DNA from: Candidatus Omnitrophota bacterium
Lineage (GTDB): Bacteria > Omnitrophota > Omnitrophia > Omnitrophales > JACROU01
Length of the DNA stretch: 64,000 nt
Assembly (NCBI GenBank): GCA_016214265.1
Contig: JACROU010000024.1
Span: 5,223 to 69,222, forward strand
Direction of reading: 5' to 3'
Position numbers and translations under genes: made by a program. The notes below the pieces were generated by a model. It saw only the letters and a list, made by a program, of their open reading frames with translations. It did not search any database and was not told where the DNA came from. Positions 13,970 through 57,565 of the stretch are shown here, piece by piece (the first letter of the stretch is position 1; every line of letters begins with the position of its first letter).

Positions 13970-16900
13970 CTAGGCGGCTCTCTTAACTTTTTCTTTGGCC
14001 TTGAGTTCCTGCAGCATCGCTTTGGCCAGAGCAAGTACGGCGGCAAAGTTTAACTTAATTACATTTGGCATTTTAGCGCCCGGAGCGACAATTTCGGCTT
14101 CTTGCAATGCCTTCAGGCCACCTGCTGGATCACGGGAAATATAGCGTCCCGCTTCAAACAGGAATTTGTTTAGGGTCTCGTGATCATCTTTGGTGAGCGT
14201 TTGGTCAGATGGCGTCTTTTGATACACCACTGAAATAATTCCGGCTTCTTCTTTATTCTGGCTGACATTCACAATATTATTTTTGTTACCGCCCTTCTTC
14301 TCAATTTCGCGGACAATATCCGGAGTCGCGAGGCTCTTCACCTCAACAACATGAAGGCCGTTCGTGCCCGGAACTACTTTTGCCATCAGCGGACTTTTCA
14401 GTTCACCAGCTAATTCTTGCGGAACGAGAATGTAGTGAACTTGGTCAGAAGTGTCCGAGAGCGGATCAATGAGTTTCTGGAATTCTTCTTTTGTCGAGAT
14501 GTTTTCATCCGCGATGACGAATCCTTGTTTGGACATGTCGCCTTCAGGTTTTTTGCCGGCTGCGGCTTCTGAATTCGCGATAATTTCATCCAGCACATGA
14601 CTGAAGCTGGCCAAATTAAGAGCTTCCATTCCCCCGATCGGGCTCAGTCGGGCTGAAACTGTTCCTTTCCAGAATGAATTACGGAGCACCCGTTTCTCGC
14701 CGTCAGAAATTGGCAAGGCGTCGATCCGAAACGCAATATCTGTCAGGTCGCTCATCGAAACATGCACATTTTCTCGAAGTGCGTATCGGATAAAAATGTT
14801 ATCCGTCTGTTTCGTAATGATGGCGCGATTAAGTTCCCGGTTGAATGTCGAAAGCGTTTTGGCCAGCGCGAAATTGCCTAGCTTGCGGGCGGCCATTTCT
14901 GTCCGTTGATAGGCCTTGAACTCATCCATGGCAGCCCGCAAAACGGGATCGGTAATATTTTTCAATTGCGGATTATCGATATTTTCAATATGCGTCGACT
15001 CGTGAATCAGGTTCAGGGTAAGCGTGTCCATCGCCTCACGGTCCCCCGCCTGCGCTCGCTTAACGAGATCGGCATTCAGGACGATCGTGCGGTTCTTGAG
15101 ATCGGTGTAAGCTTCAACGCCGGCCATTTCGGAACTGAACGTTTTTGTTGTGATGACAGAAGGAGAAATCTTGAGAGCCGGATACAACTCACTGGCCCGC
15201 TGAATCAGGATGGTTTCAAGTCCCGCGGTCGGAATCGCCGGGGCGACAGTGCCGACGCCGAGGGATTTGCCGGCGACAGGAGAAATTGCCGAGGGCAACG
15301 CAGGTTGTCCCGTAGCCAATTGTTCTGGTAATGTTGGTGCGATTTCCTTGCCAATTTCGATCCCCTTTTCCACTTTCAGCATTTTCAGCTTATCTTCCAC
15401 AGATCTTGATCCCGGAAAAACCTCTGGATTTTTCTGGAGAGCTTCGGCGAGACGTTCGACGACGGCCTTTTGATAAGTGAATCCAAATTCATGTAGGATG
15501 GCTTCAAATGCTTTCTGATCTTCTGGAGAAAACTGACTGATGATTCCAGCGTGACCTTGATTGTAATAGGCCAGCAATTCCTCCACGATTCGATAATCAT
15601 TATTTACAAATCCTTCATAGCCTTTTTTCATCACAGCTTCTTTCGCGTTTTGATAGCCTGCTAAACTCATAACTCTTTTTCTGATGTCTGCCTGCTGATC
15701 TTTGCTAAGAGCCATCCAATCCACCGCATGTGTGAGTTCATGAACCGCGTTAAATGTCGTGTCACGCCCTTCAGCGTCTTGATGGAGGTTCTTTGAAAAT
15801 TTCACGAAACCAACACCCTTTGAGTCTTGAAAAAGTTTGTTCGTCATTTGAATTCCGCGAATGATCGAATCCACAATATCAGGTTCGGCTTTCAAAACAT
15901 GCGCTGGGATCTGCGCCTGAATTTCTTCTCGGTTTTTATTCGCAAAGTCTCTATATTGTTCTGCCTTAGTTGGATTGATATATACGCCGGCTGCATGAGT
16001 CGGGTCAAAATTCCATTGCTGATTAAAAAGCCGCTGGGTATTTACAAAGTCGTTTCTGTGTTGAGCCCCCGCTTCGCTCGATGGATCAATCAAAACGGTG
16101 TTTTTCAAAGTCTGGTCGATGATGGATTTAGTTTGGACGAACGTTTTGAGGTTTGCCGGCAATGTTTTATCAAGTTTTTTTGCCTGCTCATAAGCAATTC
16201 GCGCCTCATCCAGTTTTCCTGCTTGTGCCTGATCGTAGATTTTGTTATTCAGATCTTCGATTCTTTTCGCCGCTACAAGAAGTTTTTCCTGAACAAGTTC
16301 AACCGGAATTTGGGCGAAACTTGTGATATTTCCTGTTGCGTCTTTACGGAACAGATAATGATCTTGTCCGTCATTTAGTTTGCTCCAATCCATCGTCGCC
16401 AATTCTGCCTCAGTCAGTTCTGTTTTCGCGAAGTGCTGGTCAAGAACATTCGGAGCAATTTGCCTTGAGTGTAATGTTAAATGAGAAACTGGCTTGCCCT
16501 GTCCGAGTTCTTCGATTCCGTTTAGCGCGGCCGTAACAAGATTTTTCTCGGTTCGTTTTCTGTCTTCTGGAGTCTGACTCAATGCTCGCTGATAATCTTG
16601 ATTGATTCGGATCACCTCATCGGCGATAGCCTGATCATAGGTCTGACCGGTGTCCGGATCCTTAAGTTCCGACGTCCACCACCACTGGAACCACTCATTC
16701 CGGATCAATTTAGCCACCTCATCCCGGATTTCCTGCTCGGTTCCGTTCAGGTTCTTACCTATATTAAAGGAAAGCGCATACCACATAATGCCGGCGATGC
16801 TGTTGACCAGATTCTGATTGTTCGCTCCACCGCGGGTAAAGTGGGCGTAGGCTTCCTTCCAGTCGAAGATCCACGCCTGCCCTTTCTTCAGTTTCTCATC

Positions 16901-57565: not shown

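Follow-up and report, generated by a model that had tools for sequence, protein, structure and literature searches.

The locus described here raises two linked questions: whether a bacterial gene of 43.6 kb is real, and what its product may do. The window, by which we mean the whole stretch of DNA analysed, comprises 64,000 nucleotides (nt) of contig JACROU010000024.1 (positions 5,223 to 69,222 of the forward strand, assembly GCA_016214265.1) from a Candidatus Omnitrophota bacterium, and it carries one minus-strand open reading frame (ORF) for a protein of 14,531 amino acids (aa), hereafter the giant. The ORF was confirmed to be one genuine and intact gene, mosaic and not repetitive in its make-up. 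As to function, we consider it probable that the giant is a Sec-exported, envelope-associated protein of cell-surface contact, made by an Omnitrophota-like episymbiont or predator.

One intact gene without a cysteine codon

The ORF listing and the translation of the window gave the following frame, in which aa i to j of the giant correspond to window positions (57565-3j+1) to (57565-3(i-1)):

13970..57565, minus strand: giant ORF, 14,531 aa plus stop

The frame opens with ATG and runs through 14,531 sense codons to its sole stop, the terminal one; the window contains no N. The original prediction had described a single 43.6-kb ORF of this length, and this stands, with the addition that the strand, unstated there, is minus. 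At the base composition of the window, the probability that 14,531 codons stay free of stops is ~1e-362, and in the two other frames of the same ORF every 1,000 codons contain 35-105 stops. In 14 out of 14 successive 1,000-codon blocks the coding signature was constant (G1 ~0.36, G2 ~0.13). Sequences resembling a ribosome-binding site (GGAAGG/AAAGAG) lie 5′ of the ATG, where the spacer is AT-rich and 205 nt long.

Tandem Repeats Finder returned just two arrays from the DNA of the ORF, both 21-nt and 2-copy, and self-BLAST together with tile-against-tile phmmer revealed almost no internal repeats in the protein. Mis-assembly is therefore unlikely, because repeats that an assembler could collapse or mis-join are nearly absent. 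Tetranucleotide frequencies correlated with r = 0.90 between the two halves of the giant and with 0.94-0.97 between each part and the whole window, and the base composition of the ORF agrees with that of its flanks.

A further property extends over the full chain: the giant contains no cysteine (Cys). In-frame TGT/TGC codons number 0 against 260 and 690 in the other two frames, and at the rate of two Cys-containing neighbours ~78 residues would be expected (P ~1e-34). The 1,879-aa protein encoded upstream has only two Cys, both in its leader, so that its mature part is Cys-free; similarly, in the truncated immunoglobulin (Ig)/RHS ORF at the start of the window, Cys is confined to the leader and the mature part is Cys-free. 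The 1,952-aa neighbour has 12. MBI4398669.1, the Omnitrophota homologue described below, is likewise Cys-free.

Could the giant be an artefact, either a chimeric contig or several genes joined through missing stops? The source is probably a metagenome assembly, and the public collections searched contained neither the exact proteins of three neighbours that were looked up nor a near-identical relative of the giant; yet we regard an artefact as exceedingly improbable, given the odds against such a stop-free run, a coding signature identical in every block, the absence of repeats for mis-joining, a homogeneous tetranucleotide signature, a zero Cys count that no chimera of ordinary genes would show, and the recurrence of the module order of aa 7345-9361 in an independent assembly, the contig of MBI4398669.1.

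Leader, hydrophobic segment and central module

The features that bear most directly on export and membrane association, with the evidence for each in brackets, are:

57395..57565, minus strand: extended N-terminal leader, aa 1-57 (sequence, hydropathy, Smith-Waterman)
57250-57500 in the giant and 63060-63335 in the 1,879-aa protein, minus strand: shared leader stretches (Smith-Waterman)
56666..57394, minus strand: low-complexity linker, aa 58-300 (sequence and composition)
35156..36178, minus strand: hydrophobic Gly/Ala-rich segment, aa 7130-7470 (hydropathy)
32804..35533, minus strand: conserved central module, aa ~7345-8254 (homologue alignment, HEAT model)

The leader of the giant combines a basic n-region (with KK at 23-24) and a hydrophobic core of 20 residues, IIAAGTAFTFLFTQVNILSA; cleavage could take place between LSA and YS. 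It could act as a signal peptide or as a signal anchor; the earlier claim was of an anchor, and the hydrophobic leader behind that claim is present by sequence and hydropathy. Together with the first ~100 residues, the leader is homologous to the corresponding part of the upstream 1,879-aa protein (FTQV...PLY...QPSASGQV; Smith-Waterman z = 10.4), which suggests a common export signal or the swapping of leaders between adjacent genes. The linker that follows is made of a Q/P/G stretch, then a Lys/Glu-rich segment and then Ala/Pro-rich (A/P/V) repeats; the Lys/Glu-rich linker announced by the original prediction is thus seen in the sequence, within aa 58-300.

In the hydrophobic segment, small-xxx-small motifs are dense over aa 7130-7470, and hydropathy gives two strong candidates for transmembrane (TM) helices, one starting at aa 7245 and the other at aa 7285, in line with the ~340-aa Gly/Ala hydrophobic segment noticed before. 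We read this region as a putative membrane hairpin or membrane-insertion region. The central module resembles a HEAT-like alpha-solenoid, with a marginal match to the HEAT model (25.5 bits against a cut-off of 23.5), and its most conserved stretch is IDEAFVEELAGDFF...EFADTYIAEAISGGGEG.

A full HMMER pass with aa 6700-7899 against 1.84 billion cluster representatives produced the sole relative found, MBI4398669.1 (E = 2e-43). This partial 2,885-aa hypothetical protein comes from a Candidatus Omnitrophica metagenome-assembled genome (MAG), where it lies on the 8.8-kb contig JACQQR010000213.1. It aligns with aa ~7345-8254 and 8720-9361 of the giant, and its modules follow the same order: YD-like repeats, hydrophobic segment, helical module and Thr-rich region. 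Three other parts of the giant (aa 1-1200, 10001-11200 and 13332-14531) gave no match at E <= 0.001 among 5.8 billion proteins in a word-indexed search. Neither the N-terminus nor the central-module alignment found a match in scans of JGI metagenomes, and no relative was detected among viral contigs, plasmids and phages by viral scan and tblastn. The giant is a near-orphan.

On JACQQR010000213.1 itself, positions 1-170 carry YD-like sequence in-frame and 5′ of the annotated start, with two in-frame stops no more than ~22 codons away from the end of the contig. These stops could be contig-end errors, the mark of a broken gene, or a gene boundary.

Repeat arrays and putative peptidase units

Most of the remaining chain consists of beta-repeat and helical regions:

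44168..55720, minus strand: degenerate YD/RHS beta-hairpin repeats, block 1, aa ~616-4466 (Pfam and NCBIfam models)
39716..42868, minus strand: helix-rich K/L/A/E/D region, aa ~4900-5950 (model matches, composition)
36461..39388, minus strand: YD-like beta-repeat block 2, Gly/Thr/Val/Ile/Asp-rich, aa ~6060-7035 (composition, phmmer)
28706..31768, minus strand: Thr/Ser/Val-rich beta-repeat region, aa ~8600-9620 (sequence, weak internal repeats)
16466..24568, minus strand: long helix-rich A/L/K/E region, aa ~11000-13700 (composition)

The YD/RHS assignment of block 1 is supported by two models. For RHS_repeat (PF05593) the score was 55.6 bits when aa 1-5000 were taken as a whole; single 1,000-aa tiles scored 24-53 bits, five of them above cut-off, and YD_repeat (TIGR01643) matched tiles of the giant with 22-44 bits, above its curated cut-off. 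Helical inserts interrupt the block at ~2500-2700 and ~3400-3500, and its final strong repeat occupies aa 3722-3752. The N-proximal YD/RHS repeats of the original prediction are accordingly real, and so is the non-classical layout that it stressed: NCBIfam detected no Rhs-associated core (TIGR03696), and the giant contains no PxxxxDPxGL autoprotease motif, only a degenerate P-x4-DP at aa 3773. A canonical Rhs toxin was rejected on these two grounds and on the ~10,000 aa that lie beyond the repeats. Block 2 resembles block 1 weakly in tile-against-tile phmmer.

Within the first helix-rich region, a coiled-coil stretch (aa ~5540-5950) drew weak, noise-level matches of SMC/Rad50 type. In the Thr/Ser/Val-rich region, Thr rises up to 21%, and Ala/Gln-rich helices continue beyond it to aa ~10100; no recognisable domain was found by Pfam or NCBIfam in the long helix-rich region, and the C-terminus is a Lys/Ala-rich helix. 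The coiled-coil and Ala-rich helical regions described earlier were confirmed, models lending support to the coiled-coil and HEAT-like stretches, and the Ser/Thr-rich beta region is seen directly in the sequence. Otherwise the chain is silent in the searches made: Pfam (5,000- and 1,000-aa tiles), NCBIfam and PHROGs yielded only RHS/YD, coiled-coil noise and the marginal HEAT match, and phmmer against PDB with the full giant in three pieces yielded nothing. Features of type V autotransporters and two-partner secretion (TPS) or of type I RTX/LapA proteins, namely a C-terminal beta-barrel, a TPS domain and RTX repeats, had no Pfam or NCBIfam matches.

Four short units carry motifs of metallopeptidases:

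56348..56608, minus strand: JAB/RadC-like domain, copy 1, aa 320-406, motif E...HAHTHIEDKPPSLED (motif, paralogy)
26606..26875, minus strand: JAB/RadC-like domain, copy 2, aa 10231-10320, motif E...THNHPESGEPSSTDIQ (motif, paralogy, sub-threshold matches)
15446..15928, minus strand: HExxH unit 1, aa ~13880-14040, HELTH at 13942 (motif, sub-threshold Tox-MPTase4)
14786..15238, minus strand: HExxH unit 2, aa ~14110-14260, HESTH at 14188 (motif, sub-threshold Aspzincin_M35)

The two JAB-like copies are homologous to each other over ~90 aa (phmmer E = 1.7e-5; Smith-Waterman score 84 against 32 +/- 5 for shuffles). At only 23% identity they share 24 invariant positions, among them an E that opens a hydrophobic strand as well as H, H, S and D. 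Both hold an E...HxH...S-x-x-D (PSxxD) motif, in which the spacing from HxH to S is 6 rather than 7. Comparison with known families remained below threshold: Prok-JAB of Pfam scored E = 0.21, while hhalign aligned only the motif region, with plasmid RadC (P = 1.3e-4, 48% identity over 33 columns) and with a 7-sequence RadC/JAB alignment (P = 1.2e-3). A profile search of PDB with the JAB-like pair gave noise and no JAB match, and the AlphaFold2 (AF2) model built from the 2-sequence alignment was unusable, with a predicted local distance difference test (pLDDT) score of 37. Searching plasmids by tblastn with the JAB-like and HExxH units at E <= 10 returned chance-level matches only, one of them on a RadC motif. 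Another, among the repeats of an RHS protein from Leptospira, was discarded as YD-like similarity, not JAB. Two RadC-like JAB units are plausible on the motif and the paralogy; of the two JAB-like motifs claimed before, both are present in paralogous domains, but the identity of these domains is sub-threshold and their model failed.

For the HExxH units, the best profile scores were again sub-threshold (Tox-MPTase4, E = 0.11; Aspzincin_M35, E = 0.004-0.02). The AF2 model of the C-terminal 481 aa (13850-14330) had a pLDDT of 40 overall and was usable only around the second unit, where aa 14110-14194 reached 70-86 as strands followed by the HExxH helix; this is the only piece that was modelled confidently. 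A Foldseek search of PDB with it placed selecase (a minigluzincin) in all six best positions, with E values of 0.07-0.34, below significance, and target-normalised TM-scores of 0.46-0.52. These models are suggestive only of mini-zincin-like units. The earlier C-terminal HExxH region survives as two HExxH motifs, but every zincin match is sub-threshold.

The helicase-like ATPase module proposed earlier was rejected. All three [AG]xxxxGK[ST] strings of the giant sit in YD-repeat or charged helical context, with one DEAD-like string 270 aa from a Walker-A-like string, and the ‘Walker A’ at aa 11453 belongs to the long helix-rich region and does not form a P-loop. At E <= 0.5, no 1,000-aa tile was matched by a model for a P-loop, a helicase or SecA_DEAD.

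Functional readings and gene neighbourhood

How could these parts work together? In the reading that we favour, a contact protein of the cell surface, the extended leader would direct the chain through Sec, and the total lack of Cys would suit a polypeptide that travels or works outside the cytoplasm without disulfide chemistry. Outside the cell, the ~3,800-aa YD/RHS array may fold into a long beta-helical shell or tubule; jointly, this array, the second YD block and the coiled-coil stalk would make a reach-and-bind structure. The central Gly/Ala hairpin would either anchor the protein in the membrane of the producer or insert into that of a partner. The putative metallopeptidase units, two JAB/RadC-like and two of HExxH type, would be borne by the helical tail, the Thr-rich beta region and the HEAT-like solenoid; their target may be the giant, which they would trim, or the envelope proteins of a host or prey, which they would attack.

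Several points weigh against this reading. Depending on the number of TM helices, the C-terminal 7,000 aa may lie outside the cell or in the cytoplasm. The taxonomic signal comes from one mobile-looking neighbour gene, which is the chief clue, and from one distant homologue. About 70% of the giant has no assignable fold, and the peptidase assignments, JAB-like and HExxH alike, are all sub-threshold. No genes for secretion systems (type II, TpsB or type I) that could provide a route across an outer membrane were found within the window. Finally, the SecA_DEAD and C39 domains reported to be common in Omnitrophota giants are absent here.

A purely structural role, as an adhesin or fibre or as a component of an S-layer or sheath, would make the whole chain scaffold and the HxH and HExxH strings incidental. 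Sequence of beta-repeat, coiled-coil and helical-repeat type does dominate the composition, the exported neighbours are of Ig-like/RHS type or rich in repeats, no catalytic domain exceeds any curated threshold, and in 14.5 thousand amino acids (kAA) the chance of meeting two HExxH and two HxH...S..D strings is not low. We nonetheless judge it unlikely: the JAB-like stretches are true paralogues that kept E, H, H, S and D invariant at 23% identity, the surroundings of the second HExxH are the only confidently folded part and have a zincin-like topology, and conservation of the central hydrophobic module hints at a role beyond that of a passive fibre.

By analogy with MARTX, large clostridial and Tc/Rhs toxins, the giant might instead be a self-translocating multi-effector toxin, whose hydrophobic region would open a pore in the prey membrane for passage of the C-terminal half, with the JAB-like and HExxH units releasing effectors or acting as such. 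The Gly/Ala hydrophobic region between repeat arrays, the YD repeats, the two JAB-like domains with conserved E/HxH/S..D, the two HExxH units (one weakly selecase-like) and a Cys-free chain compatible with unfolded translocation are all consistent with it. We give this scheme small credit, about as much as the purely structural role, as no effector or toxin domain was recognised in Pfam, NCBIfam, PHROGs or PDB, the Rhs core, the autoproteolytic motif and a helicase/ATPase module are missing, the peptidase calls are sub-threshold, and directly downstream there is no immunity-like small ORF; the next gene encodes a mobile-looking AAA_14 ATPase. The ‘multi-effector machine’ of the original prediction has to be set down as speculation, with no effector domain identified. 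More doubtful is a new contact-dependent weapon architecture, in which the YD tubule of a Sec-exported, Cys-free chain would reach a host or prey, the Gly/Ala hairpin, part of a module conserved in at least one other Omnitrophota giant, would insert into the target membrane, the C-terminal ~7,000 aa would be threaded through and the JAB-like and mini-zincin units would cut the chain into active pieces. If this long shot were true, the giant would be a one-chain counterpart of Tc/MARTX toxins, and its domains for translocation and processing would be ones not recognised before.

The reading as a surface contact protein can be set beside what is known of other giants. Omnitrophota encode proteins of up to 85,804 aa with TM segments and mostly without annotation, for which hollow RHS-like beta-helix tubules were predicted and prey adhesion or cell-wall attack was proposed (West-Roberts et al. 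2023, 10.1101/2023.11.21.568195). One corpus contained 3,650 proteins of at least 10 kAA, concentrated in Omnitrophota, where 94% of complete genomes carry at least one; among such proteins 94% have a signal peptide (SP) or TM segment, 80% of clusters are singletons and 15% lack any Pfam match (Nielsen & Lui 2026, 10.64898/2026.06.07.730766). The statement that proteins of this size are very rare in bacteria therefore holds for bacteria in general but not for Omnitrophota, in which the size of the giant is expected and no surprise in itself.

The present protein resembles these giants in exceeding 10 kAA, in having an SP and TM segment(s), in being a sequence-unique and mostly unannotated mosaic, and in its HEAT-like scaffolding and RHS-like beta-helical repeat regions; its only homologue, too, comes from an Omnitrophota MAG. 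It fits as a mid-sized member of the ‘SP+TM’ topology class (few TM helices) and, judged by its Pfam matches, of the ‘tandem-repeat scaffold’ class, with one Pfam repeated and the rest dark. It differs in lacking, besides SecA_DEAD, C39/S8 peptidase, dockerin/TSP3, glycosyl-transferase and glycosyl-hydrolase domains: 1,000-aa tiles at E <= 0.5 matched none of the domains of Archaeovorin (SecA_DEAD, glycosyl-transferase/hydrolase, methyltransferase, NUDIX) or Dockerin (dockerin plus TSP3) type. Proteins of at least 10 kAA average 22 TM helices, against ~2 strong candidates plus the leader here. True RHS_repeat/YD models match and dominate the present giant, and Cys, which the text of neither paper mentions, is absent from it.

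With the Rhs/YD polymorphic toxins and the TcB-TcC cocoons of Tc toxins, the giant shares YD/RHS repeats above cut-off, and a second, Ig-plus-RHS protein is encoded in the cluster. In contrast, its repeat region is N-proximal and 3-4 times the length of a cocoon, and the TIGR03696 core, the PxxxxDPxGL aspartyl-protease motif and an adjacent immunity gene of Rhs toxins are missing; these toxins end in a toxin of ~150 aa, whereas ~10,000 aa follow the repeats here. The likeness to MARTX and large clostridial toxins is one of analogy only (great size, export, repeats, a hydrophobic segment at the centre that may serve translocation, and internal units that may be peptidases): there is no similarity to MARTX repeats, CPD, glucosyltransferase, APD or CROP, and unlike MARTX the giant has an N-terminal Sec-type leader and not a C-terminal type I secretion signal. 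Among the peptidases, THNHPESGEPSSTDIQ resembles the consensus HNHPSGxxEPSxxDxxxT of RadC-like JAB (JAMM/MPN) domains and the upstream Glu is conserved in both copies, although only the ~30-residue motif region aligns and the spacing from HxH to Ser is one residue shorter. As in selecase, Tox-MPTase4 and Aspzincin M35, an HExxH lies on a helix after a small beta-sheet, in an AF2 model with an overall pLDDT of 40; a third zinc ligand was not located.

Omnitrophota giants are abundant and none has a demonstrated function. This one is workable, with 14.5 kAA, ~2 TM helices and no DNA repeats, and it offers testable handles in the no-Cys rule, the shared leader and the hydrophobic-plus-HEAT-like module common to a second Omnitrophota protein; the duplicated RadC-like JAB and mini-zincin-like units could be expressed as small domains. 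It also indicates that genuine YD/RHS repeats, and not merely RHS-like folds, can dominate a giant in the absence of an Rhs toxin core. The interesting details, which we take as leads and not as findings, are that Cys is strictly avoided, that the leader is shared with a neighbour, that RadC-like units are duplicated, that the central hydrophobic/HEAT-like module is conserved and that genuine YD repeats occur without an Rhs core.

All genes in the window lie on the minus strand, and those next to the giant are:

63511-64000, minus strand: gene running off the window end, C-terminal 163 aa (no family match)
57771..63410, minus strand: upstream neighbour, 1,879 aa (exported, Ala/Thr/Ser/Val-rich, internal repeats)
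12216..13658, minus strand: AAA_14 plus DUF4143 ATPase, 480 aa (family models)
6176..12034, minus strand: downstream neighbour, 1,952 aa, with signal peptide (no family match)
1..5973, minus strand: downstream ORF running off the window start, >1,991 aa, with signal peptide (family models)

Such neighbouring genes for large exported proteins, which carry signal or anchor sequences at their N-termini, suggest a gene island for the cell surface or for contact. The window contains no taxonomic marker genes and no tRNA, rRNA or Rfam family, barring one call by ARAGORN: a 90-nt tRNA-Pro(TGG) at 58846-58935 on the plus strand, antisense within the 1,879-aa ORF. At the Rfam gathering threshold no tRNA was found there, and the call is probably a false positive.

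The AAA_14 gene is probably foreign to the system of the giant. Together with ~70 nt upstream (12216-13737) it is 85-91% identical at the nucleotide level to copies on unrelated MAG contigs, from Omnitrophica among others; this homology breaks off exactly at the ends of the unit, and a 32-nt palindromic match lies at 13671-13702. Its protein is 91-95% identical to those of two Omnitrophica MAGs and of one MAG labelled Planctomycetia. It looks like a self-contained mobile unit inserted between the giant and the next gene. Synteny with giant genes elsewhere was rejected, as the contigs with AAA_14 copies carry no giant gene; the tetranucleotide signature of the window is closest to that of these same contigs.

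Further downstream, the 1,952-aa protein contains an internal duplication of ~620 aa (aa 504-1133 against 1127-1757, phmmer E down to 4e-85). An rRNA or other non-coding RNA behind the seemingly ORF-poor region 1-6000 was rejected, since this region is the minus-strand ORF that runs off the window. Its layout comprises a signal peptide, a low-complexity patch rich in Tyr/Asn/Gly, 13 Big_13 Ig-like domains and RHS repeats, and it is possibly a conventional Ig-plus-Rhs toxin with its core and toxin beyond the window. At the DNA level this ORF carries a tandem array of 192/384 nt at 1835-4086, with 71-76% matches.

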